Shown: positions 440-62,695 of the stretch, in pieces | Position numbering within the stretch: position 1 is the stretch's first letter | How the letters are laid out: each line of letters opens with the position of its first letter | NCBI GenBank assembly: GCA_012628545.1 | Contig: GCA_012628545.1_3035.1 | Origin: a phage | Strand: one strand, 5' to 3' | Length of the DNA stretch: 64,000 bases | Program-made: the position numbers and the translations under genes | The notes under the pieces: model-generated | The model's input: only the letters and a program-made list of their open reading frames with translations | What the model was told of the DNA's origin: nothing | Database searches by the model: none

Positions 440-463
440 TTTATTCTCCTTTGTTTGTGTAAG

Positions 464-496
464 ATAATACTATCACAAAGGAACCATACTGTAAAC
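464..496 (-). promoter_or_regulatory. early promoter
   Basis: GTTTAC (rc of 491..496) and TATTAT-like -10 upstream of ORF 71..439. Confidence 0.4.
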
Positions 497-3350: not shown

Positions 3351-3388
3351 GTAGAGCTATAATATCACAACTCTACCAAAAAGTAAAC
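3351..3388 (-). promoter_or_regulatory. early promoter, -10 region inside an inverted repeat
   Basis: GTTTAC (rc of 3383..3388); IR ggtagag / ctctacc around ctataatatcacaa. Confidence 0.4.
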
Positions 3389-6654: not shown

Positions 6655-6715
6655 AAAGTCCTCATGTTATGTCAGTAAGACTACTGTAACACAACACGAG
6701 GGACTTGTAAACAGC

Positions 6716-14834: not shown

Positions 14835-15077
14835 TCAAATAGACTTTTTCACAATTTTCCAATCAGCTTTAAACTGATCGACGTCAGAGTGATAAATCCA
14901 AAATCCTGCGCTTTCTCCGTCTTCATAAAGAGGACATCCATCGCATTCATCTTCCCATCCCATATCACGTAAAAGATGTTCAGCTTTTTCAATAAGTTCA
15001 GAATCTTTACCAATAATATTAAAATACCATTTACCTCTAACTTCTGAATCTTTGATACTCTGACGTTGTAATCTCAT
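14835..15077 (-). CDS. hypothetical protein
   Basis: 80 aa from internal ATG; ORF-track extension reads through upstream promoter. Confidence 0.45.
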   Translation of the reverse strand: MRLQRQSIKDSEVRGKWYFNIIGKDSELIEKAEHLLRDMGWEDECDGCPLYEDGESAGFWIYHSDVDQFKADWKIVKKSI

Positions 15078-15087
15078 TTTATTCTCC

Positions 15088-15132
15088 TTAGTTGATAAGG
15101 CTATAGTATCACTACCATAGCCTGTTGTAAAC
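15088..15132 (-). promoter_or_regulatory. early promoter (conserved family)
   Basis: tagttgata...ctatagtatcac...gtaaac arrangement. Confidence 0.45.
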
Positions 15133-15134
15133 AA

Positions 15135-15428
15135 TTATTTTTGAATTTTATCGAGCCACTTACCAAGCTTAATCATTTCTTTAGTAGCCTTTTCCATACT
15201 TCTGAACTTAACCAATAGAGGATAGGTATCGACACCCATAACTAAACTGGTTACAAGACTGTGTTCACCCACAAGCCATAACGAATACGTTTGAATATCG
15301 AGCCCGTAATTTCTGTCTTTGTGGACCCGTACACCCATCACTTCAAATTTCTCACTAGCTTTTTCTACTGCATCCAGGAAATCATCTTTAGTCATATTAG
15401 GCCTTAAAAGTTTTTCGCAAAAGTTCAA
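15135..15428 (-). CDS. hypothetical protein
   Basis: 97-aa ORF. Confidence 0.45.
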   Translation of the reverse strand: MNFCEKLLRPNMTKDDFLDAVEKASEKFEVMGVRVHKDRNYGLDIQTYSLWLVGEHSLVTSLVMGVDTYPLLVKFRSMEKATKEMIKLGKWLDKIQK

Positions 15429-15817: not shown

Positions 15818-16045
15818 TTATTGTTCAATCAGTCCCATGTAAAATTCTGCGTCTTCGGCATCCATGCCATCACAATATTCATTAGCCATAAAGCGGGTGA
15901 GGTCTTCAAGAGGACCTTCAACAACAATTTGAATACTCCAAAATTTAGAATCTTGCACACTTGTGATACTAAGTTCAGGATAACGATTACGAATAATTTC
16001 TTCGATATATTCAAAATCAACGATGTCAATATCAACTTTAGCCAT
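15818..16045 (-). CDS. hypothetical small acidic protein
   Basis: 75 aa from internal ATG (MAKVDIDIV); ORF-track version starts at TTG inside the gene 32 terminator and reads through the promoter. Confidence 0.45.
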
Positions 16046-16079
16046 ATTATTTTCCTCTTTAATCATCAGCAGTATTGCC

Positions 16080-16118
16080 GATAGTTGTATAGTACCATGG
16101 AAGGACAAGGATGTAAAC
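16080..16118 (-). promoter_or_regulatory. early promoter (conserved family)
   Basis: GTTTAC, about 15 bp, TGGTACTATACAACTATC on minus strand; A/T UP-like tract upstream. Confidence 0.5.
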
Positions 16119-16140
16119 CATTTTGTGAAAAAAATTTTTG

Positions 16141-16170
16141 AAATAAAAAAGGGGACCCTAGAGGTCCCCA
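16141..16170 (-). terminator. rho-independent terminator after gene 32
   Basis: Hairpin ggggaccc-tag-aggtcccc with flanking A/T runs. Confidence 0.55.
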
Positions 16171-16191
16171 ATTAATTAGTAATATAATCTA

Positions 16192-17100: not shown

Positions 17101-17170
17101 TTTTATTTCCTTTTAATTTAATTAACAGTTGGTGCTATGACGATGTATGACCTCATAGCTGGTCAGTGAG
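17101..17170 (-). promoter_or_regulatory. gene 32 translational operator (leader with pseudoknot)
   Basis: Leader contains GCUAUGAGGUCAUACAUCGUCAUAGCACC followed by A/U-rich tract before the AUG. Confidence 0.45.
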
Positions 17171-17173
17171 ATA

Positions 17174-17202
17174 ATTATAATCTATTTATAATAAGCAATT
17201 AA
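17174..17202 (-). promoter_or_regulatory. overlapping middle and late promoters of gene 32
   Basis: Minus strand TTGCTTAT MotA box, 12 bp, TATAAT; TATAAATA within the spacer. Confidence 0.45.
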
Positions 17203-19360: not shown

Positions 19361-19390
19361 ATGAACCTCGTTCAATTAGTGAGATTTCTA

Positions 19391-19419
19391 TTATATACCA
19401 TCCAAATCTTAAAGTAAAC
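19391..19419 (-). promoter_or_regulatory. early promoter for rnh
   Basis: GTTTAC and TGGTATATAATAG extended -10 on minus strand. Confidence 0.4.
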
Positions 19420-25191: not shown

Positions 25192-28100
25192 ATGGCTACT
25201 TTAAAACAAATACAATTTAAAAGAAGCAAAACCGCAGGTGCACGTCCTGCTGCTTCAGTATTAGCCGAAGGTGAATTGGCTATAAACTTAAAAGATAGAA
25301 CAATTTTTACTAAAGATGATTCAGGAAATATCATCGATTTAAGCATTTCTGCTGGTGGTAATATCAGTGGTAATATTACTCAAACTGGTGATTATACACA
25401 GACTGGAAAATTTAATTTAATTGGTCCGCAAATTGTAGAAAGCGGTGGATATATTGAGTTTAATTATCGTACTATTGGAAGTGGGGCTTGGTCTGGTCAA
25501 CACACTGCAAAAGCTCCAATTTTTGTAGATTTAAGCTCAGCTACTTCCACATCTGAATATAATCCTATAATTAAACAGCGCTTTAAAGATGGAACTTTTT
25601 CATTAGGTACTTTAGTTTCTGAAGGTTCGTTGAAGATTCATTATATCAATGAATCTGGCGATTCGAAATATTGGACGTTTCGACGTGACGGCGGATTTGT
25701 TGTTGACGGTGGAGGTTTAGCAGTATCAGGAGGTAGTATAACTACATCTGGAAATATTGCAGCTCTCGGAAATATTACTTCGCCTCAGATTAATACTAAA
25801 AATATTATTTTAGATACAAAAGCATTTGGACAATACGATTCGCAATCATTAGTTCAATATGTTTATCCTGGAACAGGTGAAGAAAATGGTATAAACTATC
25901 TTCGTAAAGTTCGAGCTAAATCAGGCGGAACCATTTACCATGAAATCGCTTCAGCTCAAACCGGTAAAAATGATGAAATTTCTTGGTGGACCGGAAATAC
26001 ACTTACTACTAAATTAATGGGTCTTCGTAATGATGGCGCAATGGTATTACGTCGTTCACTTGCTATTGGCACAATTACCACTGACGAAAATACTAACAAC
26101 TATGGTTCTCCTACTCCAATGGGAGAAAGATATATTGCTTTGGGCGATGCTGCCACTGGTTTAAAATACATTAAGCAGGGTGTTTATGATTTAGTAGGTA
26201 ATTGGAATTCTGTTGCTTCTATTACTCCTGATAGTTTCCGTAGTACTCGTAAAGCGTTATTTGGACGTTCAGAAGACCAAGGCGGAACCTGGACAATGCC
26301 TGGAACGAACGCTGCCTTTTTATCAGTTCAAACACAGGCTGATGAAAACACTGCTGGAGACGGCCAGACGCATATTGGCTATAACTCAGGCGGAAAAATG
26401 AACCACTATTTCCGTGGTAAAGGCAAAACTAATATTAATACTCAGGAAGGTATGGAAGTTAATCCGGGTATTTTGAAATTGGTAACTGGCTCTAATAATG
26501 TAATGTTTTATGCTGATGGCGGTATTACATCTGTTAAGCAGCTTTCAATATATAATGGCATATATTTAGCAGCTAATAATTCTACTGCTGGGCTAACATT
26601 CGCTCCAACTACTACAATTGATGGCACTAAGCAAATTTTGTGGGAAGGCGGTACTCGTGCTGGTCAGAATAAAAGCTATGTAACTGTTAAAGCATGGGGT
26701 AATTCATTTAACGCATCTGGCGATCGTAATCGTGAAACGGTTTTTGAAGTAGCTGATGGACAAGGATATTATTTTTATTCACAGCGTGTGGCTCCAAGTG
26801 GCTCTGAAACTACTGGGCCTGTTGTAACCCAGTTCAATGGACAAGTTAATGCTAGAGGAAGTATTATTACTGACGGAAGTTTTAAAGTTAATGGATTAAG
26901 CACTTTAGTCGGTAATGTTACCATGTCTAATGGTTTGTTTGTCCAAGGTGGTTCTTCTATTACTGGACAAGTAAAAATTGGTGGAACTGCTGATGCATTA
27001 AGAATTTGGAATGCCGAATACGGTGCTATTTTCCGTCGCTCAGAAACAGCATTACATATTATCCCGACTCCTAAAGATGCCGGTGAAAGTGGTGGAATAA
27101 GTAATCTCCGCCCACTTAGTATTAGTCTTAATAATGGTATGGTACAAATGCGCCATTCTGTTACGTTAGGCGATGATGGCGCTGGCGGTAATATGATTAC
27201 TGTGGACAACGATACCAAACTTGTTGTTGTTACTAGTCATAGTCGTATTTCTCCTAATTACCGTATGCAGGTAGGACAAGCAGCTTATATTGATGCTGAA
27301 TGTACTGACACCGTTCGCCCGGCTGGTGCAGGGTCTTTTGCTTCACAAAATAATGAAAACGTTCGTGCTCCGTTCTATATGAATATTAATCGCACAGATA
27401 CAAGTACTTACGTTCCTATTTTAAAACAACGTTATGTTCAAGGAAATAGCTGTTATTCTTTAGGTACTTTAATAAATGGCGGTAACTTCAGAGTTCATTA
27501 TCATGAAGGTGGAGACGGAAGTTCAACAGGCGCAATTATAAAAGATTTAGGCTGGGAATTTACACGTTCTGGTGATTTTATATCTCCTAAGCGCATTTCT
27601 GCTGGGGGTTCAGTTTATTTAGGTACAGACGGTAACATTACTGGTGGTTCTGGTAATTTTGCCAACTTAAATAGTACAATTGAATCACTTAAAACTGATA
27701 TTGTTTCAAGTTATCCTATTGGAGCTCCGATTCCTTGGCCTACTGATACACCTCCTGAAGGTTATGCCATAATGGAAGGTCAAACATTTGATGTTGGCTT
27801 GTATCCTAAGTTAGCTGCGGTGTATCCTTCCGGCTCTCTGCCTGATATGCGCGGGCAAACTATCAAGGGTAAACCATCTGGGCGTGCTGTATTAAGTACA
27901 GAAGCAGACGGTGTTAAGTCACATAGTCATAGTGCAAGTGCATCAAGCACGGATTTGGGTACTAAGACCACATCAAGCTTTGACTATGGTACTAAGACGA
28001 CAAGTAGTTTCGACTATGGTACTAAGACCAGTAATAATACTGGTGCTCATACGCATAGTTTGAGCGGTTCCACAAACACCGCCGGTGCGCACAGCCACAC

Positions 28101-29942: not shown

Positions 29943-29970
29943 TAACTATACCACTCAATTAGTTGACTTT

Positions 29971-30003
29971 ATTATAATATCATCAGACACTTGATTTGTA
30001 AAC
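29971..30003 (-). promoter_or_regulatory. early promoter for asiA
   Basis: GTTTAC (rc of 29998..30003) and ATATTATAAT -10 on minus strand. Confidence 0.45.
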
Positions 30004-31761: not shown

Positions 31762-32397
31762 TCACAGTTCAGATGCTACAGTGATTACAGCTTCAATGTT
31801 TTCTGCTGAACGTTTAATGTCAAGATACACATTACCGTTTTTAGCGATTTTACATGACATTCCGATATCAGTAAATTTCTGAATATGATGTTCCATCATT
31901 TTGTATCCAAAAATTCGCATGTTTCCATTGTTGTTAATTTCAAAATTACGAATTCCGTGAGTGCGTTTTTCTAAAATAGCGAGATAGTTACTGCGATAAG
32001 TTTCGACCTTTTTAAGAACAAATCCATTTTCATCTAAAAGTTTTAACATGAAGTCTTTATCTTCTTCCATATCAGAAGTAATCTCACGAGATTTACGAGT
32101 TGCTCGTTTTTTCAGCAGTTCCGGAGCATTTTCCTGTGCGTATAAAGTTGCTGCGTTTGAAATAATATCCTGAGCTTCACCAGTAATGATTAATCCATCA
32201 CCAGATTTCTCTACCAGGCCCTTTTTAATCAATACACCAATATTACTATTAACTACTGCGTTACCTAAATCTGGATGCACCTCACGAACTTCTGCAGCTG
32301 TAATGAAATCTTTCTTAGCAATAGTAATTAAAATCGCAGCAGTTTTTTCATTCAGAACATCGTTAGAAGCTTTGATGATGTAAGTTACTTTAGACAT
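31762..32397 (-). CDS. motA: middle-promoter transcription activator MotA
   Basis: 211-aa ORF; matches T4 MotA by length and sequence recall. Confidence 0.9.
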   Translation of the reverse strand: MSKVTYIIKASNDVLNEKTAAILITIAKKDFITAAEVREVHPDLGNAVVNSNIGVLIKKGLVEKSGDGLIITGEAQDIISNAATLYAQENAPELLKKRATRKSREITSDMEEDKDFMLKLLDENGFVLKKVETYRSNYLAILEKRTHGIRNFEINNNGNMRIFGYKMMEHHIQKFTDIGMSCKIAKNGNVYLDIKRSAENIEAVITVASEL

Positions 32398-32424
32398 TTT
32401 CTAATCTCCGTAATTCTGTATCAG

Positions 32425-32468
32425 TAGTTGATAGTTGTATAGTACCACAGTATGCTTTGGTTGTAAAC
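32425..32468 (-). promoter_or_regulatory. early promoter for motA (conserved family)
   Basis: GTTTAC, 15 bp, TGGTACTATACAACTATCAACTACTGA. Confidence 0.5.
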
Positions 32469-32489
32469 CGTTTTGTGAAAAAATTTTTG

Positions 32490-32522
32490 AAATAAAAAAA
32501 AGGGAGAGCCTCGGCTCTCCCT
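32490..32522 (-). terminator. rho-independent terminator
   Basis: GGGAGAGCC-UCGG-CUCUCCC hairpin with A/T runs. Confidence 0.55.
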
Positions 32523-32526
32523 AAAA

Positions 32527-32676
32527 TTACTGCATGACTGTGATAACTGTCATGATAACACGTTGAATTCCGAACGCAAGAAGACCTCCTGCTACGGCTG
32601 GAACAACACCTAAACCCGCCAGTAAAATGCTACCAGATACTAATGCAGCGCTTGTAATACCAATGAATGGACTCAT
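32527..32676 (-). CDS. small hydrophobic protein (49 aa)
   Basis: Hand-translated MSPFIGITSAALVSGSILLAGLGVV...; ATG overlaps gene 52 stop (ATGA); below ORF-track cutoff. Confidence 0.4.
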   Translation of the reverse strand: MSPFIGITSAALVSGSILLAGLGVVPAVAGGLLAFGIQRVIMTVITVMQ

Positions 32677-35436: not shown

Positions 35437-35536
35437 AGTAAACGTTTAATACATCAATCATTAAAACGATTGGGAATATACTCAAAACTATTAGTATTAT
35501 AACTACATTCCATATAGCTTTAATAATCTTTTTCAT
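35423..35536 (-). CDS. small membrane protein (37 aa)
   Basis: Internal ATG (MKKIIKAIWNVVIIL...) of ORF-track 35423..35671; the remainder reads through a promoter. Confidence 0.3.
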   Translation of the reverse strand: MKKIIKAIWNVVIILIVLSIFPIVLMIDVLNVYFGFM

Positions 35537-35550
35537 TTTCTGTTCCTCCG

Positions 35551-35594
35551 TAGTTGATAGGGTAATAGTACCACGGAAGAACAGTCTTGTAAAC
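35551..35594 (-). promoter_or_regulatory. early promoter (conserved family)
   Basis: GTTTAC, 15 bp, TGGTACTATTACCCTATCAACTAC. Confidence 0.45.
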
Positions 35595-35779
35595 AACTTT
35601 TTTAAAAATATTCGTAATAAATGTGAATACCAACTACTACCGCTGAAACCTGTGCAACCCACCATGCACAAGCAATAAGTACAGAATTTAAAATTTTCAT
35701 AATAACCTCATTACAAAAGTAAATGTTAAACAAATTACTGGAATACTAATTAACCAAACAAAACACCACCATAGTGAAC

Positions 35780-36043
35780 TCATAGCTCAATCTCAATGAT
35801 TTCAAGATTATTTTCTTTAATAGCTTTCTTTAAATCATCGTAAATAAGAACTTCCCAAGAATTGTTTAAATCACCATTCAACAAACGCTCTTGTTGCAAT
35901 TTATCAGTAAGATACGGTTGATCTGATTCATATTTAGACAATCCCAATGAAATAAATGATGTTGCATCGTCAATTTCAGAATATTGTACATGAACAAATT
36001 CACCTGTGATTTTATGTTTAACATAAAAGAATTTAAATTTCAT
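35780..36043 (-). CDS. hypothetical protein
   Basis: 87-aa ORF just downstream of an early promoter copy. Confidence 0.45.
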   Translation of the reverse strand: MKFKFFYVKHKITGEFVHVQYSEIDDATSFISLGLSKYESDQPYLTDKLQQERLLNGDLNNSWEVLIYDDLKKAIKENNLEIIEIEL

Positions 36044-36057
36044 TTTCCGCTCCTCCG

Positions 36058-36101
36058 TAGTTGATAGTTGTATAGTACCACGGTCCTTGTGGTATGTAAA
36101 C
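36058..36101 (-). promoter_or_regulatory. early promoter (conserved family)
   Basis: GTTTAC, 15 bp, TGGTACTATACAACTATCAACTAC. Confidence 0.45.
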
Positions 36102-36119
36102 TGTTTTGTGAAAAAATTT

Positions 36120-36677
36120 TTAAATGGAAAGATACCATCCGTTGTAGTTGCTTTTTCTTACAACCTTACGAAGGTCTTCTCTGTCACCGATGAACTTCGG
36201 AGTGTACTGGATGACACCTGGATGAATTTCTTTAGTGTTGAATATAATTATACAGTCAGCGACTTGATGATTTAGAATGGGCCCTAGATTTATTCCAGAA
36301 CCATATGGATACTCTCCGCTGCATCCTGTTGTTACCGAAATCCAACGTGAGTCAGTTTGATGTGTCTTAACTTCTACGCGAAGCCCACAGTATTTTGGAT
36401 GCGCCAATACATCCCATGCATACGTGTACGGATCATCGACATCTTCTTGACCTTTATTAACATACCCGCTTAACCAATCTGCTACAAAAAACTCTGCGTA
36501 CACAGCGATACGACATCTTTCGATAACTTCTGCCTTATCCTGGTTCGGGTTTTGTTTTAAAGAGTATCTTGCTGTATCAGCAATTTTGACCTTCATTTCA
36601 TTGGTTAAATCGCTGTTCGATAGAGTAAATGTCGGAATCTGAAATAGTCTCTGCAAACCCGGATTCGTTTTCTGCAT
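36120..36677 (-). CDS. denB: endonuclease IV
   Basis: 185-aa ORF; T4 DenB length and position next to rIIB. Confidence 0.7.
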   Translation of the reverse strand: MQKTNPGLQRLFQIPTFTLSNSDLTNEMKVKIADTARYSLKQNPNQDKAEVIERCRIAVYAEFFVADWLSGYVNKGQEDVDDPYTYAWDVLAHPKYCGLRVEVKTHQTDSRWISVTTGCSGEYPYGSGINLGPILNHQVADCIIIFNTKEIHPGVIQYTPKFIGDREDLRKVVRKSNYNGWYLSI

Positions 36678-40105: not shown

Positions 40106-40378
40106 TTAATTCATATTACGTTTAATAACTTCAGCAACTTCTAGTAGTTCATCTTTAGTTGCGGTGTCGGATTGAATTTTATCTCTAATATCTTTAAAGC
40201 GGTTTTTAAATTCTTCGGCTTCTCCCATATCGAAAAAGCGTTGAATGATTCTATATTCTCGATGAACTGCTTTATCAAAAAGTTCTAAATTTACTCTATA
40301 TGATTTCATTTCAATATCCTCATTTGCCCAATTAATTATACCACATCCTTGTGTAAAGTAAACTACTGGCTCATCCAT
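40106..40378 (-). CDS. hypothetical protein
   Basis: 90-aa ORF. Confidence 0.5.
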
Positions 40379-42183
40379 TCTTTACGAAGGTCAGCATTAT
40401 CTCCCATGAGCATTTCAAAAAGCTCTTTCCAATTCTCAGGAAGTTTAACAACATCATATACTGGATTTTGAATCATCTCACGATATTCAGATTTTTCCAA
40501 AGAGCCAAGTCCCTTAATATAACGGATGCTATGTTTAGGTAGAGCATCTTTGGCACTCTCATATTCAGCGACTGTATAAAACCATTCTTGTTTTTTACCG
40601 ACCTGAGCGATGATTACAGGAGTTTTGACAAAGCGAATTCGTCCTTGCTCAAACAATTCTGGCCAATTACTAAAAAATCCGAGCAGAGAAGGATAAATGC
40701 TTCCTAGACCATCATGGTCAGCATCAGTCATAATAGCAATATTGCGATAATTCAAGTTTTCAGCTTTTTCACCAAGAACTAGACCAGTGATTGCGCAAAT
40801 ATCAAATAGTTCTTTGTTTTTAAGCATATCGGCATATGACATACCCCAGCTATTAAGAACTTTACCGCGCAATGGATAACCACCATGAAGTTCTTTATCG
40901 CGAACATCAATAAGATATCCGATAGCTGAATCACCCTCAGTCAAGAACAATGTAGTGTCAGCATCTTTACCGCAAAGATTCGCTTTAATATGTTTATGAA
41001 CCTTAGCTTTAGAAGCCTTTTTAGCTGCTTTAGTTTCTGCTGCTTTTTCTGCCGCCAATTTACGAGCCAAAGCAGCTTCAATAATCGGCATCAGAATTGC
41101 TTCATTATTTAGAATAGCGCGTGAAATCTTTTTAGCGTCAAGTTGAATATGACTACGAATTTCGCCAAATGGAGAAGTCAAACGCTCTTTAGTTTGAGAA
41201 TCAAATCGCATGTTTTTCATATCACGAACAAACATAACGATAGTCAAACATTCTTTGACACGTGCTTTAGTTACATCAATTTTGAACTTACGTTTGATTT
41301 GTGGAATAAGGTCTTCACAAATATCATCCATAACACAGTCAATGTGATGGCCACCATTCTTAGTGTGAATGTTATTCACGTAAGTTAATTGACGAAATCC
41401 ATCCGGCGAACGACCAACCGCAATAGAACAATTTTCTTGTTCTTGAACAATAGCATGTTCATCATACTGTCGTGCATATTTCTTAAAATTACCCTGAACC
41501 TTTTTACCATTAAAGGTAAATTGAATATCAGGATAAACAACAGCAAGTGTCTGGAGACGATCTAGTGTAATGTCAAGATAAACTTGGGACAGCTCATTAG
41601 TTTCAAATGACATAAAATCAGGAATGAAAGTAACACGGGTTCCTTTCCATTTTCCAGGAATATCTTCCCATGATTTATTTTCCATGCCGTTTGAACAACG
41701 AACTACAATATTATTTTGACCATCGCCAGTTTCACCAACAAACATCACAGAAAAAATGTTTGTCAAACTAGAACCAACGCCATTCATACCACCGGTGACA
41801 CGTTCTTTATCATCACCGAAGTTACCACCTGCTTTTGGAATAGTCCACGCAGCAACAGGACCAGGAATTTCTTCACCGGTAGGTGTTTTAACCATCGCCT
41901 GTGGAATACCACGACCGTTATCTTCAACTGTTACTTGATTATTTTTAATAGTAACATTAATTTTATTTGCGAATTTAAACTTAGTACGAATACCTTCATC
42001 TACTGAGTTATCGATAATTTCATCAATAAGCTTAACAAGACCAGGTACATACTGAACACTTTCCCATTTACCAAACAGAAATCGCTCATGCATTTCATTA
42101 GCTGAAGAGCCAATGTACATGCCGCTACGCTTTTTGATATGTTCAATATCGCTCAGAATTTTAATTTCATTCTTAATCATCAC
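40363..42183 (-). CDS. 39: DNA topoisomerase II large subunit (GyrB-like), gene 39 and gene 60 parts in one ORF
   Basis: 606-aa uninterrupted ORF; GHKL ATPase N-terminus; C-terminus carries the T4 gp60 sequence (NVAIMTDADHDGLGSIYPSLLGFF...). Confidence 0.9.
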   Translation of the reverse strand: MMIKNEIKILSDIEHIKKRSGMYIGSSANEMHERFLFGKWESVQYVPGLVKLIDEIIDNSVDEGIRTKFKFANKINVTIKNNQVTVEDNGRGIPQAMVKTPTGEEIPGPVAAWTIPKAGGNFGDDKERVTGGMNGVGSSLTNIFSVMFVGETGDGQNNIVVRCSNGMENKSWEDIPGKWKGTRVTFIPDFMSFETNELSQVYLDITLDRLQTLAVVYPDIQFTFNGKKVQGNFKKYARQYDEHAIVQEQENCSIAVGRSPDGFRQLTYVNNIHTKNGGHHIDCVMDDICEDLIPQIKRKFKIDVTKARVKECLTIVMFVRDMKNMRFDSQTKERLTSPFGEIRSHIQLDAKKISRAILNNEAILMPIIEAALARKLAAEKAAETKAAKKASKAKVHKHIKANLCGKDADTTLFLTEGDSAIGYLIDVRDKELHGGYPLRGKVLNSWGMSYADMLKNKELFDICAITGLVLGEKAENLNYRNIAIMTDADHDGLGSIYPSLLGFFSNWPELFEQGRIRFVKTPVIIAQVGKKQEWFYTVAEYESAKDALPKHSIRYIKGLGSLEKSEYREMIQNPVYDVVKLPENWKELFEMLMGDNADLRKEWMSQ

Positions 42184-43722: not shown

Positions 43723-43992
43723 TTAATTGAACAGTGGAGCGATACGTTTCAGAAGAGTAGCAGCACCTTTAGCGAATTTTACATCATGAAAAACAGTTTC
43801 TTCTTCTGTAACAACACGAGCTTTAATGTTTTCACAATCCCAATTTTTGCGAACAATCTTCAAAAGCTGCAGTAAATCTTTACATTCAGCAATATCGATA
43901 ACACATCCACGAGAATCTTCCATTATCGCACGATAACCGTAAGCCATACCATAATCATTGAAAGATTGCTCGATGATAATTAAGTTTTCCAT
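43723..43992 (-). CDS. hypothetical protein
   Basis: About 89 aa from ATG with GGAGA SD; ORF track starts at upstream TTG. Confidence 0.45.
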   Translation of the reverse strand: MENLIIIEQSFNDYGMAYGYRAIMEDSRGCVIDIAECKDLLQLLKIVRKNWDCENIKARVVTEEETVFHDVKFAKGAATLLKRIAPLFN

Positions 43993-44020
43993 TTTATTCT
44001 CCAAGTTGTTTTCTGTATCA

Positions 44021-44085
44021 GTAGTTGATATTGATATAGTACCATAATCAACTACTGATGTATATAGTTTTATGAAAAAATTTAA
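44021..44085 (-). promoter_or_regulatory. promoter-like element with 11-bp inverted repeat
   Basis: cagtagttgat ... atcaactactg flanking a TGGTACTATAT core. Confidence 0.3.
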
Positions 44086-44088
44086 ACT

Positions 44089-44580
44089 TTATGCATAGCG
44101 AGCTTTGCTGTAGTGTTTAATCCAACTTTCAGGAATGACTTTGTATGTTCCTAAAAATACCGCGTTGTACAGCTTAACACCGTCTTCTACCCATTGATCA
44201 GTAATGTATGCACACATAGCGCGAGTACGGTTAACAACACCTTCCTCACCTTCAGTAAATTCAAACTCATAAGGAGCAACGAACTTGATAGCTTGACCGA
44301 GTTTCCACTTAAAGTCTACACCTACATGCGAAGTATCAATCGTTTCAATTCCTTTAGCGGGAACAGCTTTCAAAAACGCAGGCTCAAGAAATTTCCATCG
44401 AACATAACCAAACTGAGGTTTAGACATTCCATCTTTAGGAATGATACGCACTTTTACTTCAGAATCTTCATCTTTAACACCATGTTTAAGCTGAATGCTT
44501 ACGACTTCAACCAATTTTCCTGCTGCCTTAGAACGGGATTTATCAGATACACGAGCAATTTCACCGATATTAATATTCAT
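44089..44580 (-). CDS. motB: putative MotB
   Basis: 163-aa ORF; assignment from length and synteny only. Confidence 0.5.
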   Translation of the reverse strand: MNINIGEIARVSDKSRSKAAGKLVEVVSIQLKHGVKDEDSEVKVRIIPKDGMSKPQFGYVRWKFLEPAFLKAVPAKGIETIDTSHVGVDFKWKLGQAIKFVAPYEFEFTEGEEGVVNRTRAMCAYITDQWVEDGVKLYNAVFLGTYKVIPESWIKHYSKARYA

Positions 44581-44653
44581 AATTATCTCTCACTTGTTAA
44601 AAAGATTTTATACTCCACAGGACCATTATACTCTGGTCCCAAGAGTTTGTAAA

Positions 44654-45091
44654 CTAGCTTACACGAACATTAATCACTGCGCTACGAGGAACTACAGAGT
44701 ATTCTCCAGCATGAACTACGTTCAGAAGTTCAACACCATCTTCAATCCACTGATCAGTCACCCATCCACCCACAGGATTCGCGAATGGACGACGAATATA
44801 AACTGCCTTACACAGCAGATCAGTTGGATCTTCAGGTTTTTCAATTTCTGTCAATAGACTAAAATCTTTTTCATAAATAATAAGCGGTGATACCATTCCA
44901 TAATAGTTTCTAATTTCAATATACATCATACCGATAAGAATTCCGCTATTAACACTAATAACAGTAAAAGGATATCCGCCAGTTAAACCAAGAAGTTCAC
45001 AAAACTTATTATGAGCTGTATTAGACAGTACCGAAAAATTCTTAATTTCATCAAATTTTTTCAATTGATAAACAGCATTATTTTTAATCAT
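44654..45091 (-). CDS. hypothetical protein, C-terminal module paralogous to upstream ORF
   Basis: 145-aa ORF; shares motif TDQW(I/V)EDGV(E/K)L.N.V..G.Y.V(V/I)P with ORF 44089..44580. Confidence 0.5.
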   Translation of the reverse strand: MIKNNAVYQLKKFDEIKNFSVLSNTAHNKFCELLGLTGGYPFTVISVNSGILIGMMYIEIRNYYGMVSPLIIYEKDFSLLTEIEKPEDPTDLLCKAVYIRRPFANPVGGWVTDQWIEDGVELLNVVHAGEYSVVPRSAVINVRVS

Positions 45092-45101
45092 AATTTTCTC
45101 T

Positions 45102-45653
45102 TTAATCTAAGGTAATAAAGCCTTTTAATTCGGCATGGGATTTACGGAACATTACTTGGTGCCCGCCAATGATAACTTGGTCATCTGGCACTTCATAAAT
45201 CGCAATGTACATTCCACGTTCTTTTAAGTCTTCACGCTCTTCTCGAGTGAACCATCTCATCATATCATATTCACTAGCGAAAGCAAAATGATATAATGCA
45301 ATAAACCACAATGGAATATAATTTTCAATTCGTGAATAATCTTTATTCCATTTAGTTTTAATAACATCATTAGCATTTTCAACTAATAACTTATCATCGT
45401 GTGGAATAGGAATACTTTCATGGCTTTCATAATTATCGCTATGATGATGAAATGACGATGAATTAATACCACAAAATTTTAGCCAAGTTCGAGTTTTCAT
45501 AGAATCAAATCCACGATAAGGAGTTGATTGAACGCATAACTCTTGCCTAATTTTGACTATACCACTATCATCATTTAATGCGCTAAACGATGATTCAACA
45601 CGATAAATTTTCATTTTATTATCCTCAGTAGCTATGGTGTTATAATACCACAA
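45102..45653 (-). CDS. hypothetical protein
   Basis: 183-aa ORF. Confidence 0.5.
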   Translation of the reverse strand: MWYYNTIATEDNKMKIYRVESSFSALNDDSGIVKIRQELCVQSTPYRGFDSMKTRTWLKFCGINSSSFHHHSDNYESHESIPIPHDDKLLVENANDVIKTKWNKDYSRIENYIPLWFIALYHFAFASEYDMMRWFTREEREDLKERGMYIAIYEVPDDQVIIGGHQVMFRKSHAELKGFITLD

Positions 45654-45677
45654 CTAACCGAGGAAGTAAACAACTTT

Positions 45678-49470: not shown

Positions 49471-49590
49471 ATTTTTCTCACATCTTACGGACGATTTAAT
49501 ACTTACTATAACATTTTTACCTTAACTTGTAAACAACTTTATGTAAAATGCTTTAAAAATTTCATGGTATAATGAATCTAAGTCCTTCCA

Positions 49591-50193: not shown

Positions 50194-50813
50194 TCAACTA
50201 CCTCAATATCATAAACTTTAAATGTTCCAAATGAATCGTGTAATTTTTCTTTTGAAATAGAAGTTATTCTATACTTTCCAATTGGAATCATCCATTCTTG
50301 TTCATGCACAATCATCATTAAGTTATCAGTACGCTCTGAATCTAACCCATCAGTATCTTCATATGTATACTTAAACTCAGTATTAGGAGAAGAAAGTATA
50401 ATATCGCTGATATGGTCAGAGTAATTAAAAGCTTTATCAGTTTTTAAACGAAGTATTGTTTCAGTGAAATATTCAGCATAAGAAAAAGAACACGCTGTAT
50501 GCAAACTAGTAGTAAATGAATCTACCCTGTTCGTTGAAAACACTTCTCCAACTTGCAAATCTTTAATAAGTTCTTTTGTCGATTTTGATATACCACGATA
50601 TAATTGATAAGGCGATTTAGTTAAATGCTTTTTAATGATTTTATTCAACTGTCTGTGAAGAGCTTCATTCTTTTTTGCTTCCATACATTGCCAAAGAACA
50701 GACTGCTCAAAATCAGTAAATTTTTCACAGACCTTTTTATACATATCATATTGAAAATCAACGCTTTCAGCTTTTATAGATAACTGTTCAACATCTGCAG
50801 GATTAATAATCAT
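50190..50813 (-). CDS. modB: ADP-ribosyltransferase ModB
   Basis: 207-aa ORF, paralogue of ModA. Confidence 0.75.
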   Translation of the reverse strand: MIINPADVEQLSIKAESVDFQYDMYKKVCEKFTDFEQSVLWQCMEAKKNEALHRQLNKIIKKHLTKSPYQLYRGISKSTKELIKDLQVGEVFSTNRVDSFTTSLHTACSFSYAEYFTETILRLKTDKAFNYSDHISDIILSSPNTEFKYTYEDTDGLDSERTDNLMMIVHEQEWMIPIGKYRITSISKEKLHDSFGTFKVYDIEVVE

Positions 50814-50880
50814 GATAGCCTCCGTATACTTCAGAAGCTATCATATCATCGTTAGAAAGGAAAGTAAACAACTTTTTGAA

Positions 50881-52915: not shown

Positions 52916-52940
52916 AGTGCTCTCCTCTATAAGATAATTC

Positions 52941-52972
52941 TATTATACCATACTCATTTTGATATGTAAACC
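52941..52972 (-). promoter_or_regulatory. early promoter
   Basis: GTTTAC (rc of 52967..52972) and TGGTATAATAG-like -10. Confidence 0.4.
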
Positions 52973-54244: not shown

Positions 54245-54270
54245 ATTATACAATAAATATATAAAGCAAT
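54245..54270 (-). promoter_or_regulatory. MotA-dependent middle promoter for gene 56
   Basis: Minus strand ATTGCTTTA MotA box, 11-12 bp, TATAAT. Confidence 0.5.
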
Positions 54271-54281
54271 AAGGATGACAT

Positions 54282-56338: not shown

Positions 56339-56398
56339 GATAATCTCCTCAGTAGTTTATGTTTATATAGTATCTCAATTTCCAACAAAAGTAAACAG

Positions 56399-56840: not shown

Positions 56841-56898
56841 AACAATCTCCTCATTTAACCAACAAGACTACTATACCATAGTCTTGTCAGCTTGTAAA

Positions 56899-58326
56899 CT
56901 AAAATTTTAATTCATTTGCCAAAGCATCTAACTGTGCTCGAGTGGATTCATTTCTTTGATAGCGATTCTGTTCAGCCTGAATCTGTTGTGAACCTGCTAC
57001 TTCACTCACTTCAGTTGGAGTAGAATCTTGTTCAATTTCTACCCATTTCTGATTTCCCTTTTGAACACCCATCAAAAACTTATTCCACTTATTCTTATCG
57101 CCATATCGTGATTTGATTTGCTTAATGAGTTGTTGTTCAGCAGCTGCTAGCTCCTCGGTTTCAATGACCGCAAGCATAAAATCAGCTGTTGCTGGAAGAC
57201 CAGCAGATTCTGCGATATCACTCATGTTAACATCGGAAGAGTCCCAAGCTTGTTTACCAACCTGTGCTGCAGTCCAAAGAACAGTTTCGGTTTCAACAGC
57301 AAGAGCACGCAATTCCTCTGCAATAGCTTTAACAGTTGTGTAACTATTTTCTGAGTAAACTCTGATGCGGCAAGATTTACAAATACCTAGATAGTCGACA
57401 ATAATGATTGTTGGAACAAAATTCTTTTTGAGCTTCAATTCATTCAAGAGAGACCTGAATGTGTTAGCATCTGCCCCACCAGTAGGGTACTGTTTAACAA
57501 TTAAACGACCGAGAGTAGATTTCTCACGCCATTTTTCCATTTTTCCTTTATACTCAGCGTAAGAAATATGCCCATCATCAATGTCATCAAGAGAAACATC
57601 GAGCATATTAGCGTCAATACGTTTAGCACAGACTTCTTCTGCCATTTCCATGGAGATATAAAGAACGTTATGTCCAAGCTGTAAATAATCTGCTGCTAAT
57701 GAACACAATCCTAATGATTTACCAACGTTAACGCCAGCCATTAAAACGTTCAGTGTTCCAGTTTCAGCTCCGCCTTTAGTAATTTTGTTTAGAATTCTGA
57801 GTTTAAATGGAACCTTACGAGCTTTATTCATATAAGATAGCCAACGTGCTTCGTAGTCATCCATCCAATCATGACCAACGTAACTATCAAATGAAATTGA
57901 TAATGCTTGGCGCATGATGTCAGGAATAGCACCAACATCCGGCATTTTCTTATTTCGTTTTTCCGGAGGAAGCTCAGCATTAGTTTGAATTTCGATTATT
58001 TTAGACGTAGCATTAAACATCGCCCTCTGCTGAACATATTTTTCAGTTTCTTTTACTAACCAGCTGTGGTCTTCCGGAGAATCAGCTAGTTTTGAAATAA
58101 GTGTTTTTACACCAGAATATTCTGTTTCCGTAAATGAACTATTTTCTAATGCAACATTTAACGCATTAATAGATGGAACGCTATGATACTCATTGACATG
58201 AGATTTAATTAATTTGAATGTATTTTTAGCTGGACCACTTTCAAAATATTCTGAATCCATATATGGCCAAACTTTTGAAAAATAAGCTTGATCAAATATG
58301 AGATGAGAAAGAATAATTTCTACCAC
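56899..58326 (-). CDS. 41: replicative DNA helicase (DnaB-like)
   Basis: 475-aa ORF with Walker A GVNVGKS; apparent GTG start. Confidence 0.95.
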   Translation of the reverse strand: MVEIILSHLIFDQAYFSKVWPYMDSEYFESGPAKNTFKLIKSHVNEYHSVPSINALNVALENSSFTETEYSGVKTLISKLADSPEDHSWLVKETEKYVQQRAMFNATSKIIEIQTNAELPPEKRNKKMPDVGAIPDIMRQALSISFDSYVGHDWMDDYEARWLSYMNKARKVPFKLRILNKITKGGAETGTLNVLMAGVNVGKSLGLCSLAADYLQLGHNVLYISMEMAEEVCAKRIDANMLDVSLDDIDDGHISYAEYKGKMEKWREKSTLGRLIVKQYPTGGADANTFRSLLNELKLKKNFVPTIIIVDYLGICKSCRIRVYSENSYTTVKAIAEELRALAVETETVLWTAAQVGKQAWDSSDVNMSDIAESAGLPATADFMLAVIETEELAAAEQQLIKQIKSRYGDKNKWNKFLMGVQKGNQKWVEIEQDSTPTEVSEVAGSQQIQAEQNRYQRNESTRAQLDALANELKF

Positions 58327-59854: not shown

Positions 59855-59931
59855 TCATTTTTTCCATAGGCATCATTATATTTTCCTCACTGGTTAAAGA
59901 TAGAGTAATTATAACACAATAAATTTAGGCA

Positions 59932-60780
59932 TTAATCAACTGCTATTGGATGAATAGCATTAAACTTATGAAATGCTTCTGATTTTTCTTTACGCGAAAC
60001 ACACATGCGAAGAACCTTTAATGGCTCGTCTTCTTCACCCAACGATTTTCGTTTTTCAATATTCGACGTTTTCCAACGAGCTTGCTCTGGAAACTCTCTA
60101 TTGATTTGCTCAAGCGCTCTATTATGTTTAGAATTACTACGAATTGAACTACACCCACCAGGAGCTTGCGCTTTACCTGATACAACCAGATATTTGAACA
60201 AGGCCAAATGCGGATAACCTTGATTAATTAAATTGAGAAATGCATACATATCTTCGCACAAATCAATTTTTCCATACCCAATTTGTTCTGTCGTAAGTTT
60301 TCCAAGGTCATACCATGTATTCGTGAATCCATATGAATTTTCACGATAATTACCCCAAGATGAAGTAATTTTAAAAATTGGTAGGCGAGCATGACCGTGA
60401 TAATACCCACAATCCATGGCATCTTCGACGTATTGAATCAATTCATAGAACTGTTCATGAGTCAATTGATTGACTTTATCCACACAACGACGGTCATCTC
60501 TTTTTCGCATTGAACTCATACGAATAGTAGTATCATCGTCAATCATCCAGATTCGTTGGCCTGCATACATATCAGTAATTGCTTTACGAGTACCGGCAAT
60601 TCCGTTTACATCATCAGGAATAGTTATAATTTTAGCTCTAGACCCATAGGCATCATAATAAGCTTTTTCTTCATGTTCACGCACTACAATATGGGGTTCA
60701 TAATCAGTCGGAAACATATCAAGGGCAGAAACTGCCCCGACCCGCTGATAACTTGGAATTACGAATTGAATCATTTCCAC
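59932..60780 (-). CDS. putative DNA hydroxymethylcytosine glycosyltransferase (non-T4-type)
   Basis: 282-aa ORF with DxD-like motif WMIDDDTTI; occupies the beta-gt position between uvsX and gene 42 but does not resemble T4 beta-gt as I recall it. Confidence 0.45.
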   Translation of the reverse strand: MEMIQFVIPSYQRVGAVSALDMFPTDYEPHIVVREHEEKAYYDAYGSRAKIITIPDDVNGIAGTRKAITDMYAGQRIWMIDDDTTIRMSSMRKRDDRRCVDKVNQLTHEQFYELIQYVEDAMDCGYYHGHARLPIFKITSSWGNYRENSYGFTNTWYDLGKLTTEQIGYGKIDLCEDMYAFLNLINQGYPHLALFKYLVVSGKAQAPGGCSSIRSNSKHNRALEQINREFPEQARWKTSNIEKRKSLGEEDEPLKVLRMCVSRKEKSEAFHKFNAIHPIAVD

Positions 60781-62314: not shown

Positions 62315-62551
62315 TCAAATGCAAGTAGTAATTACTCCAGTAGTGCTTATGCAGGTATTACCCATTTGCACACCTAAAGATCCATTTGTATTCACATGAA
62401 GATTATCATCAATTTTAACTGATATTTTACCATTAGTGTGAATAACAGTGCTAGATTCAATCACAGGTTGAGTATCATTTTCAACACTAACAAATGGAAC
62501 TGCTGCTAATGCAACTAAACAAACTGCTAAGCATCCCATAACAATTTTCAT
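62315..62551 (-). CDS. hypothetical secreted protein
   Basis: 78 aa from internal ATG (MKIVMGCLAVCL signal peptide); ORF-track extension reads through a promoter. Confidence 0.45.
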   Translation of the reverse strand: MKIVMGCLAVCLVALAAVPFVSVENDTQPVIESSTVIHTNGKISVKIDDNLHVNTNGSLGVQMGNTCISTTGVITTCI

Positions 62552-62569
62552 TTTATTCTCCAAATCCGT

Positions 62570-62618
62570 ATCAGTAGTTGATAGTTGTATAGTACCATGG
62601 AAGAACATTCTTGTAAAC
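62570..62618 (-). promoter_or_regulatory. early promoter (conserved family)
   Basis: GTTTAC, 15 bp, TGGTACTATACAACTATCAACTACTGATACG. Confidence 0.5.
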
Positions 62619-62695
62619 AGTTTTGTGAAAATTTTTTTAGGGAATTCTAAAGGTCCAGAATCATCTGTTTTTCATAAGTATAGATTTATATTACT

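Follow-up and report, generated by a model that had tools for sequence, protein, structure and literature searches.

That phage T4 has early promoters (Pe), and that these act as recombination cassettes, has been in the literature for decades. They were reportedly described by Liebig and Rueger in 1989, by Wilkens and Rueger in 1994 and 1996, and by Miller et al. in 2003. In the review by Hinton (2010), T4 Pe are presented as promoters with UP, -35, TGn and -10 elements plus further consensus regions (PMC2988021), and a primer-extension study has given start coordinates for T4 Pe40.4, Pe35.3 and Pe148.6 (PMC6024815). Both the RNA and the protein of motA are detectable at 1 min (PMC9697503). 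The shuffling of cassettes of this kind, termed PeSL, was described by Arbiol et al. in 2010 (PMC2839356) and Comeau et al. in 2014 (PMC4122927), whose comparisons include the T4/PST pair and an ndd.4/.5 exchange in the same region as that studied here; PeSL mini-circles were shown by inverse PCR only for RB49/phi1, and the authors demonstrated an attenuator effect for one RB49/phi1 stem-loop (PMC2839356, PMC4122927). The T4 late genes e, soc, 49, I-TevI and segB are under translational control by a promoter located in a hairpin: long transcripts fold over the SD and AUG, and the hairpin-internal promoter gives rise to a shorter, translatable RNA without the 5' arm (PMC3014915, PMC2988022). 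T4 early mRNAs also carry a RegB/S1 site, GGAGRAYARAA (PMC3014915; Durand et al. 2006, PMC1702504); sequence 5' of GGAG is dispensable for RegB, and motA is reported to be a good RegB substrate in T4 (PMC1702504).

The window analysed here, a stretch of 64,000 nucleotides of phage DNA, is that of a Tequatrovirus (T4-like phage). A 6-kb stretch of it is 95-97% identical to many Tequatrovirus genomes, on which motA, denB, ndd and topoisomerase II are annotated. We conclude, with a probability of about 0.87, that the repeats dispersed through this window are T4-type Pe in the form of a promoter-plus-leader cassette copied by recombination. The family is real but ordinary: it is the strong early promoter of T4-like phages, which is already well known. 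The initial annotation had described a dispersed family of near-identical early promoters, and this description was correct, given the T4-like phage, the match to the T4 consensus, the position upstream of early genes and the orthologous loci in T4.

The repeats were found where the initial annotation had placed them, every one on the minus strand. A search of the window for GTTTAC-N13-17-TGGTACTAT yielded five matches, compared with 0.00 expected from shuffles, with -35 hexamers at 16118, 32468, 35594, 36101 and 62618; all five fit GTTTAC-N15-TGGTACTAT exactly on the minus strand (0 expected). The sequence TGGTACTATACAACTATC was present without mismatch at 16080, 32430, 36063 and 62580 and with three mismatches at 44027 (0.06 expected), and a further motif count gave 8 matches in the window versus 0.09 expected. 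Exact occurrences of GTTTAC-N17/18-TAnnnT numbered 20 on the minus strand versus 2 on the plus strand, an excess that agrees with the direction of the early genes. The consensus as originally written, TGGTACTAT(A/T)(C/A)C(A/C)(A/C)CTATC, contains one base too many and matched no site in the window even at three mismatches; the corrected string is TGGTACTAT-ACAA/TACC-CTATC. All six copies listed at the outset are present, but the one at 15088-15132 is divergent (GTGATACTAT then AGCCTTATCAACTA), not near-identical. A seventh copy, at 44022-44065, in which ATATAC replaces GTTTAC, was absent from that list. The proposed conservation past the -10 hexamer was borne out and extends beyond the limit first given to it, up to ATCAACTAC. 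The sequence TATCAACTA occurred 8 times versus 1.0 expected, with six of the eight occurrences at a constant distance from a -10 hexamer. A/T-rich UP-like tracts were likewise present upstream as described, with AAAWWTWTTTTNNNAAANNN abutting GTTTAC at 0-1 mismatch in four copies (0.05 expected). The peptide HGTIQLS, said to recur in spurious N-terminal extensions, is encoded in full at only two copies, and GTIQLS at four. Such extensions do exist: the ORF list runs two genes through a promoter, at 62315-62608 and 15818-16171 (...FHGTIQLS...), the true start codons of which, each preceded by an SD, lie at 62551 and 16045.

A GenBank annotation quotes the T4 early-promoter consensus of Miller et al. 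2003 as GTTTAC(N14)gtggTAttaT, and the elements match it. The -35 GTTTAC(A/T) is exact in six of the seven family copies, the remaining one (44065) having ATATAC, and an extended -10 that fits gTGgTA(t/c)(a/t)AT follows 14-15 bp past the -35, reading TGGTACTAT in six copies and GTGATACTAT in the other. Counted as for a sigma-70 promoter, the spacer has 17 bp, and TG precedes the -10 hexamer. UP-like tracts lie around -42 and -52, with AAAAATTTTTTCACAAAAC upstream of four copies and a weaker version in the rest, and on the early-gene side an SD and ATG are located 22-38 nt after the predicted start in all family copies. T4 Pe have the same -35 GTTTAC(A/T), gTGgTA(t/c)(a/t)AT extended -10, UP-like tracts, orientation and early-gene position. 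There is no essential difference between the two, with this phage having some spacers and downstream genes that T4 lacks (the frd.3 spacer and an 87-aa ORF at 35780-36043).

No promoter features are annotated in the T4 GenBank and RefSeq records, in which a single note names Pe133295. Start sites for the family copies were carried over from T4 by a positional rule, according to which transcription would start at the A located seven bases past the -10 hexamer. This rule reproduces the start of Pe133295 named in the T4 record note as well as those of Pe40.4 (41,225), Pe35.3 (35,662) and Pe148.6 (150,727) (PMC6024815). The resulting mRNAs would begin with AUCAACUAC. A start context favouring NAD capping was rejected, given that its consensus for -3 to +4 does not fit ACT/ATCA. 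We infer promoter activity, start site and RegB cleavage from the T4 literature. Each copy combines elements every one of which the host E. coli sigma-70 RNA polymerase should be able to read: the UP-like A/T tracts, at about -57 to -39, would be bound by the alpha C-terminal domains, and the remaining elements would be the -35 GTTTACA, the 17/18-bp spacer, the extended -10 TG(G) and the -10 hexamer TACTAT. Unmodified host polymerase would then fire these promoters in the first minutes of infection, without phage protein. Strong UP-element promoters such as rrnB P1, T7 A1 and lambda PL also have A-tract and T-tract UP-like sequence before the -35, and such promoters of E. coli and coliphages likewise compete for host polymerase through strength; their -35 is TTGACA, in contrast to GTTTAC here, where the -10 is TACTAT. 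The A/T tracts in the window are 1-2 nt out of register with what is reportedly the UP consensus of Estrem et al. 1998.

The focal copy is the early promoter cassette of motA (32395..32492), which, like all promoters and the terminator described below, is on the minus strand. Its UP-like tract AAAAATTTTTTCACAAAACG (32469-32492) is followed by the -35 GTTTAC (32463-32468), the variable spacer, the extended -10 TGGTACTAT (32439-32447), the predicted start A (32432), the leader block ATCAACTAC (32424-32432), the SD GGAG (32406-32409) and the motA ATG (32395-32397). The SD/RegB-type sequence of motA is GGAGATTAGAA, and the -10 hexamer of the T4 ortholog is at 163649. Directly 5' of the promoter, an intrinsic terminator, AGGGAGAGCC GAGG CTCTCCCT then T8 (32501..32522), ends the transcript of the upstream gene 52/motA.1; in a PeSL-type cassette, this terminator corresponds to the stem-loop. 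The copy upstream of imm.1 (62549..62642; -35 62613-62618, predicted start 62582, ATG 62551) has the leader ATCAACTACTGATACGG and the RegB-type SD GGAGAATAAAA. The start given for its gene in the ORF list, 62608, is wrong and lies inside the promoter, and the -10 of its T4 ortholog is at 27056. The seventh copy (43990..44089) precedes an 89-aa ORF between motB and cef and has the -35 ATATAC (44060-44065), the -10 TGGTACTAT, a predicted start at 44029, the SD GGAGAATAAAA and an ATG at 43992. Its spacer ATCAGTAGTTGAT and leader ATCAACTACTGAT are perfectly complementary in reverse, with a 13-bp stem around the -10 hexamer (predicted dG -20.2, z -5.2); the T4 ortholog has its -10 at 6606.

Downstream of denB, the copy at 36041..36125 (-35 36096-36101, predicted start 36065) has a leader ATCAACTAC that directly abuts the SD GGAGG. 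The 87-aa ORF behind it, with its ATG at 36043, is absent from T4, and T4 homology breaks at 36054, within the leader. Upstream of ndd.4 (35534..35618; -35 35589-35594, predicted start 35558, ATG 35536), TGGTACTAT is followed by TACCCTATCAACTAC, and base pairing is predicted between the spacer CTGTTCTTCCGT and the leader/SD ACGGAGGAACAG (dG -22.7, z -4.1); the T4 ortholog has its -10 at 166783. The region of the frd.3 copy (16043..16169; -35 16113-16118, predicted start 16082, ATG 16045) includes the terminator hairpin of gene 32, GGGGACCTCTAGGGTCCCC plus a T-run, at about 16145-16169. Its leader departs from the family after ATC and reads ATCGGCAATACTGCTGAT, a 5'-terminal hairpin, and its gene is extended to 16171 in the ORF list. 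In the divergent copy upstream of frd.1 (15075..15156; -35 15127-15132, predicted start 15096), GTGATACTAT is followed by AGCCTTATCAACTAAGGAGAATAAAATG, the -10 hexamer is spanned by the stem AGGCTAT/ATAGCCT, and T4 homology breaks in the leader, at 15091.

Thirteen further Pe in the window do not share the extended identity, which makes the leader block a trait of the subfamily. The Pe at 56863..56899 is the ortholog of the T4 Pe upstream of dmd and has a stem of ~15 bp (core ACAAGACTA/TAGTCTTGT) around the -10 hexamer (z -3.5). Others are located upstream of sp (56360..56396), of mrh.2 (52935..52971), where a terminator-like hairpin precedes the promoter, of srd (49498..49534), of asiA (29967..30003) and of rIIA.1 (40328..40363, with a 17-bp spacer). 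At modB (50833..50869), a predicted hairpin has the -10 TATGAT in its 5' arm and the SD GGAGG and AUG in its 3' arm (dG -21.7, z -3.3). Pairing of the spacer was predicted upstream of motB.2 (45635..45671), with the leader and SD (dG -24.3, z -5.1), of alc (6676..6712), with the SD region (dG -25.7, z -4.2), and of 30.8 (460..496), with the SD, which is of the RegB type GGAGAATAAAA. The Pe upstream of motB (44618..44654) has the stem GGGACCA/TGGTCC around its -10 hexamer (z -3.5), and that upstream of cd.2 (3352..3388), the ortholog of T4 Pe133295, has an 11-bp stem at the same position (z -4.5). The Pe upstream of rnh (19383..19419) is the ortholog of T4 Pe148.6 (primer-extension start, map unit 150,727).

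Comparison with other genomes showed that T4 has the same sequences at motA, frd.3, ndd.6, ndd.4, imm.1 and the motB-cef interval. A BLAST query with 103 nt of the motA promoter matched 570 phage records, typically at 8 places per genome, and copies were also found in Mosigvirus and Moonvirus, before other genes. Four of the seven cassettes contain, or are immediately followed by, a breakpoint of T4 homology (15091, 36054, 43985 and 62538). The enrichment of breakpoints is notable for the seven family copies only, a post hoc comparison, and is not significant for all 20 promoters (4 observed versus 1.6 expected, p = 0.07). The ndd.6 promoter of T4 carries the imm.1 leader and its first four codons, spacers are swapped among copies between T4 and this phage, and in a metagenomic phage whose MotA is 99% identical, motA is preceded by a different promoter. 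The near-identical subset is probably one paralogous promoter-plus-leader cassette in seven copies in the window, whose likeness would be maintained by two forces, namely selection at polymerase-contact positions and homologous recombination between dispersed copies (PeSL modular shuffling). Recombination would account for identity that continues past the -10 into the leader and that, in the case of T4, reaches as far as the first codons. The spacer differs in every family copy; given that gene conversion alone would homogenise the spacer too, selection or spacer replacement is also needed.

The cassettes share with PeSL the composite of AT-rich tract, early promoter, SD and start codon in intergenic space, the repetition in hyperplastic early regions, and the siting at gene-replacement junctions between close relatives. 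Where stem-loops are predicted, they lie, as in PeSL, upstream of, within or overlapping the -10 box. They were seen at five copies, as upstream terminators at 32468 and 16118 and as stems straddling the -10 at 44065, 35594 and 15132 (z from -2.4 to -5.2), whereas copies 36101 and 62618 have no convincing stem-loop (z about 0). The published role of the PeSL stem-loop is that of a terminator or attenuator, whereas most -10-straddling stems here have no U-run and several cover the SD. An interpretation of the -10-straddling hairpins as intrinsic terminators was rejected for most of them, given that no U-run follows the stem.

These comparisons bear on two other accounts of the elements. That they are mainly recombination or mobility modules, spreading like a small mobile element with incidental promoter activity, is very unlikely. 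Such an account would fit the four of seven copies at T4 homology breakpoints, the swapping of the motA promoter cassette between near-identical phages and the mini-circles demonstrated experimentally in RB49/phi1. Against this, every copy has a complete and correctly spaced set of UP, -35, TGn and -10 elements with an SD and ATG gene 22-38 nt past the predicted start, and motA, an essential regulator, relies on one copy. Moreover, the copies show neither terminal inverted repeats nor target duplications, no transposase accompanies them, and in the view of the PeSL authors the elements are functional promoters that supply homology to general recombination. It is still less credible, to the point of being negligible, that the elements are MotA-dependent middle promoters or late promoters, and not early ones. 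The combination of -10 hexamer and TGn is indeed common to many T4 middle promoters, but in these the MotA box, (a/t)(a/t)(a/t)TGCTTtA centred at -30, replaces the -35 element (PMC2988021). The present elements have GTTTAC at -36 to -31 and no MotA box, and TGCTT is found in none of the family spacers; a candidate MotA box, GCTTTA, in the spacer of an ancestral-type motA promoter was dropped for its wrong spacing to the -10 hexamer. The late motif TATAAATA is also missing, and one of the copies drives motA, which is needed before MotA exists and whose RNA is present at 1 min.

The ATCAACTAC block is best explained as part of the recombining promoter cassette. Its register is fixed to the -10 hexamer, the distance to the ATG varying from 22 to 38 nt, and the information content of positions +1 to +9 is 10.3 bits in the seven copies versus 1.9 bits in the other 12 Pe scored. 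Known sequence-specific polymerase contacts stop short of +9. Promoter function is an incomplete explanation for the conservation of ATCAACTAC across genera, of which recent shared ancestry is a possible source. A rival possibility, which we consider unlikely, is that the block from -6 to +9 (ACAACT/ATCAACTAC) is itself a functional signal beyond inherited sequence. It could be an initial-transcribed sequence tuned to fast promoter escape, a G-poor 5' end free of structure and with an effect on mRNA stability, for instance as a poor substrate for 5'-end-dependent decay, or a platform for ribosome or S1 loading. The constant register to the -10 with a variable distance to the ATG is consistent with such a signal, as is the retention of the block in Mosigvirus and Moonvirus copies before unrelated genes, including one Mosigvirus copy in which -6 to -1 are changed and CTATCAACTAC is retained. 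The spacer has diverged fully although the blocks on either side of it are conserved, which speaks for constraint on those flanks; an alternative motA cassette also begins with ATCAA(A/T)A, and transcripts from +1 are predicted to be near structure-free (dG 0 to -5 kcal/mol). However, the block is absent from the 12 other early promoters scored, including the ortholog of the mapped T4 Pe148.6, and T4 promoters that share the TGGTACTAT core show a stepwise decay of the leader (ATCGGCAAT, ATCGGATAA, ATAGCTACT), unlike a discrete unit. In addition, RegB/S1 requires nothing 5' of GGAG, the block has no Rfam match (a covariance-model scan of the whole window on both strands gave 0 matches at gathering score), and free DNA exchange among T-even phages makes cross-genus identity possible by transfer.

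A second signal in the leader, such as an RNA processing or translational element, had been proposed in the initial annotation, and this proposal was confirmed only in part. An SD GGAG and a RegB/S1 site are present, but both are downstream of ATCAACTAC and not in the conserved block. Further down the leader, the SD GGAG, often as GGAGAAUAAAA, would serve as the site where RegB/S1 cleavage inactivates early mRNAs. The RegB consensus is exact (GGAGAATAAAA) at the promoters with -35 hexamers at 62618, 44065, 15132 and 496, and folding predicted that RegB sites are largely unpaired in the promoter-proximal transcript. These sites conform to the same GGAGRAYARAA as in T4; they lie 10-25 nt downstream of the ATCAACTAC block and would not require it.

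In predicted folds, the variable spacer is frequently complementary to its own leader or SD. The spacer and -10 form the 5' arm of a predicted hairpin in roughly half of the T4-type early promoters, including family copies 35594, 44065 and 15132 and, in part, 62618 and 16118, and the leader, SD or start codon of the same promoter supplies the 3' arm. Read-through RNA that originates further upstream would fold into this hairpin, which would mask the ribosome-binding site and the RegB site, whereas promoter-born RNA would start within the hairpin and stay open. Each early promoter may therefore double as a translational (and RegB) insulator, with the spacer as the informative part, a model suggested by the folds that we put forward as tentative and somewhat doubtful. 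At modB, motB.2, ndd.4, alc and 30.8, the arrangement has the geometry of the promoter-in-hairpin of T4 late genes, with the differences that the embedded promoter here is early and that the folds here are predicted ones. We found no statement of such insulation for early genes in the literature consulted, in which the device is published for late genes. The modB hairpin is conserved in five genera when each is folded separately. RNAalifold applied to a MAFFT alignment of six modB promoters gave only 1 compensatory pair. The -10 hexamer and the AUG leave the core stem no freedom to vary, and the copy from the Serratia phage is displaced in the alignment, so that the evidence for conservation of the hairpin comes from the separate folds. 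Searches for related loci with ModB and Alc returned only near-identical phages and were uninformative for covariation.

The family adds little to the biology of T4-like phages. Its value is for annotation, in that the cassettes mark the starts of early transcription units, and ORF callers over-extend at least two genes in the window at these sites. The +1 to +9 block, conserved past the known polymerase contacts, deserves specialist attention, as does the complementarity of spacer and leader, which at modB is maintained in five genera. If the insulator model were true, expression of proteins such as the toxic ADP-ribosyltransferase ModB would be tied to the brief life of their own promoters, and a modB hairpin that gates translation would be a simple mechanism for confining such toxic products to the opening minutes of an infection.

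The repeated elements are T4 early promoters in the form of PeSL-type (promoter-early stem-loop) cassettes, which are already known. In the focal copy, upstream of motA (32420-32522, minus strand), a terminator hairpin and T-run are followed by AAAAATTTTTTCACAAAACG, GTTTAC, an 18-nt spacer ending in TGG, TACTAT, and then ACAACTATCAACTAC...GGAG...ATG. The pattern GTTTAC-N13-17-TGGTACTAT matched five sites (0.00 expected), all on the minus strand and where the initial annotation had placed copies, and TGGTACTATACAACTATC was present in four exact copies and, with 3 mismatches, at 44027 (0.06 expected). Near-identical early promoters are thus dispersed as had been claimed, and six or more copies do exist; however, the one at 15088-15132 has diverged (GTGATACTAT, then leader AGCCTTATCAACTA), and a seventh, which lies at 44022-44065 and has ATATAC for its -35 hexamer, had been missed. 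The literal consensus of that annotation contained one base too many and matched no site. Its claim of conservation beyond the -10 hexamer was borne out, and the shared identity runs further into the leader than it had stated, as far as ATCAACTAC. Upstream, AAAAATTTTTTCACAAAAC, a distal T-tract plus a proximal A-tract, recurs with 0-1 mismatch in four copies. The sequence TATCAACTA occurs eight times (1.0 expected), six of them at one constant distance from a -10 hexamer. Read as a sigma-70 promoter, the family has TTTACA, 17 bp and then TG-n-TACTAT. Spurious extension of ORFs through the promoters affected two genes in a mechanical ORF list (62315-62608 and 15818-16171), whose SD-preceded starts lie at 62551 and 16045; the recurring peptide reported there holds as GTIQLS at four copies, but as the full HGTIQLS at two only.

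A loose scan of the window for exact GTTTAC-N17/18-TAnnnT returned 20 sites on the minus strand and 2 on the plus strand. The minus-strand sites, less one inside gene 34 and plus the ATATAC copy, form a set of 20 promoters, all 20 directly upstream of a gene. The same sequences stand at orthologous T4 loci, with -10 hexamers starting at T4 163649 (motA), 146851 (frd.3), 167062 (ndd.6), 166783 (ndd.4), 27056 (imm.1) and 6606 (motB-cef), and all 13 non-family promoters have T4 counterparts too. A Mosigvirus GenBank annotation cites the early-promoter consensus of Miller et al. 2003 as GTTTAC(N14)gtggTAttaT, and a review by Hinton (PMC2988021) describes T4 early promoters as UP/-35/TGn/-10 plus "additional regions of consensus". 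We also observed a second, separate duplicated cassette: the T4 alc promoter and that upstream of alt.-2 are near-identical throughout, spacer and leader included (AAGTCCCTCGTGTTGTGT...AGTCTTACTGACATAACATGAGGA; window 6676-6712, minus strand; T4 -10 hexamers at 136312 and 123069).

Identity extending past the -10 hexamer is a trait of the subfamily: positions +1 to +9 hold 10.3 bits of information in the seven family copies versus 1.9 bits in the twelve further promoters that were scored. Recombination alone is insufficient, given that each copy has a spacer of its own between flanks that are identical. The UP, -35, TGn and -10 blocks are accounted for by selection where the polymerase makes contact. 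The +1 to +9 block may have an independent function, though this is the less likely reading. The block is fixed relative to the -10 hexamer, whereas between 22 and 38 nt separate it from the ATG, which argues against a ribosome-positioned element. A second signal in the leader had been proposed, and SD/RegB-type sites are indeed present. RegB targets GGAG in early translation initiation regions (PMC3014915, PMC1702504), with a strong-site consensus of GGAGRAYARAA and a T4 form of GGAGAAUAAAA (PMC1702504); the SD is exactly GGAGAAUAAAA at four promoters (-35 hexamers at 62618, 44065, 15132 and 496) and GGAGATTAGAA at motA. Given that sequence 5' of GGAG is dispensable for RegB/S1 (PMC1702504), however, the ATCAACTAC block lies outside the RegB site. 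An Rfam scan of the window gave no match.

Start sites were assigned to the seventh base after the -10 hexamer. This rule gives back Pe133295, a name in the T4 record, and, applied to the T4 promoter scan, yields the starts of Pe40.4 (41,225), Pe35.3 (35,662) and Pe148.6 (150,727) published in a primer-extension study (PMC6024815). By this positional rule from T4, family transcripts would start at the A of ATCAACTAC, at 62582, 44029, 36065, 35558, 32432, 16082 and 15096 (minus strand). T4 motA RNA and protein are detectable at 1 min (PMC9697503). The frd.3 transcript (16082-16065, minus strand) has a predicted 7-bp 5'-terminal hairpin, AUCGGCA AUAC UGCUGAU, with a dG of -7.6 kcal/mol in its own transcript; the T4 stem has one mismatched pair. 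This hairpin could be a 5' stabiliser, its conservation being too low to say.

The 6 kb around the focal element are 95-97% identical to many Tequatrovirus (T4-like) genomes, under annotations for topoisomerase II (gene 52), motA, denB and ndd, and motA is the ORF at 31762-32397 (211 aa) directly 3' of that element. The window (G+C ~35%) is collinear with T4 from ~130,200 through the record end to ~28,460, and therefore covers two long minus-strand early regions and plus-strand tail-fibre genes. The T4 td intron with I-TevI (12691/12692), nrdB intron with I-TevIII (8833/8836), segG and dam (17162-17198 and 54250-54272) and mobA/60.1 insertion (40698-40763) are all missing here, and given the last of these absences gene 39 is a single 606-aa ORF (40363-42183) without the gene-60 translational bypass. 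Distal tail-fibre gene 37 (25805-27996, plus strand) is just 75-78% identical to that of T4, and ~0.95 kb of unrelated sequence at 59842-60789 replaces the ~1.9-kb segA/beta-glucosyltransferase interval; these two differences suggest a host range and DNA glucosylation other than those of T4.

A 103-nt motA promoter query matched 570 phage records, usually at 8 places per genome, and Mosigvirus and Moonvirus carry copies with the same TTTTCACAAAAC-GTTTACA...TACTATACAACTATCAACT upstream of other genes. Several lines point to recombination of the cassettes with one another. Spacers are reshuffled among copies between T4 and the window phage. Homology to T4 breaks at 15091, 36054, 43985 and 62538, all within or just past family cassettes; the 13 non-family promoters have none. 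Taken over every promoter, this is 4 breakpoints versus 1.6 expected (p = 0.07), the family-only comparison being post hoc. An 87-aa ORF at the denB-ndd junction (35780-36043, minus strand) is absent from T4, which has in its place (166997-167050; comparison locus L001:11990-12060) the imm.1 leader and first four imm.1 codons (ATGAAAATCGCT) joined to the last codons of the 87-aa ORF. Judged from sequence, we take this fusion to be the footprint of ectopic recombination via the shared promoter. In a metagenomic IMG/VR phage with a 99% identical MotA (L013:270-410, compared with window 32390-32530, minus strand), the motA promoter and leader are different (GTTTACTTCTGCTTTAAACATGATACTATAGACCTATCAAATAAA) and resemble those of distant genera, in phages whose MotA is 51-69% identical, which makes the T4-type cassette at motA look like a replacement. 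This pattern matches the PeSL model (Arbiol et al. 2010, PMC2839356; Comeau et al. 2014, PMC4122927), and those papers cover the T4/PST pair as well as an ndd.4/.5 exchange that falls in the region studied here.

In listing the promoters, we noted that the spacer is frequently complementary to sequence 3' of the -10 hexamer. In the window, the longest perfect stem that a spacer forms with its own downstream sequence averaged 5.9 nt, whereas swapped pairs averaged 4.9 nt (permutation p < 0.0005); over 41 T4 sites, duplex energies were likewise stronger for own than for swapped pairs (p < 0.0002). Family copies are among these promoters: the spacer at 44065 is the exact complement of ATCAACTACTGAT, and that at 35594 pairs with ACGGAGGAACAG. 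Inverted repeats across the -10 hexamer, whose 5' arm falls in the spacer and whose 3' arm falls in the leader, SD or AUG, were seen in about half of the early promoters (-35 hexamers at 56899, 50869, 45671, 44654, 44065, 35594, 15132, 6712, 3388 and 496, minus strand) and also T4 genome-wide (L001, L003-L006). RNA from -36 to +40 had a fold z below -2 at 9 of the 20 window promoters (dG -15 to -26 kcal/mol), versus a dG of 0 to -8 kcal/mol for RNA from +1; at the 41 T4 sites the mean fold z was -1.9, versus -0.24 in offset control windows (Mann-Whitney p = 1e-5). At motB.2, the T4 and RB69 arms differ in sequence and the fold is the same.

The modB hairpin (50795-50875, minus strand), whose 5' arm contains the -10 hexamer and whose 3' arm contains the SD GGAG and AUG, was found in five Tevenvirinae genera, Tequatrovirus, Mosigvirus, Winklervirus, Gelderlandvirus and Jiaodavirus (other loci L038:13380-13460, minus strand; L039:140-235; L040:130-226; L041:90-190). 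Its outer stems differ in sequence among genera (z -1.7 to -4.0 in separate folds), and covariation in a MAFFT alignment was weak (1 compensatory pair). The hairpin may limit translation of the toxic ADP-ribosyltransferase to transcripts from its own early promoter.

These stem-loops are themselves already known and overlap with published PeSL stem-loops, and several cover the ribosome-binding site, unlike terminators. A promoter-in-hairpin translational device has been published for late genes only (PMC3014915, PMC2988022), with late promoters, whereas the stems in the window lie at early promoters. Read-through RNA would fold over the -10-straddling repeats and RNA starting at +1 would not. 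The SD and AUG had a mean predicted pairing of 0.52 in read-through RNA versus 0.32 in RNA from the promoter itself (Wilcoxon p = 0.004), and 5 of the 20 promoters showed a clear switch. We infer from the predicted folds that the early-promoter stems might act as translational or RegB insulators.
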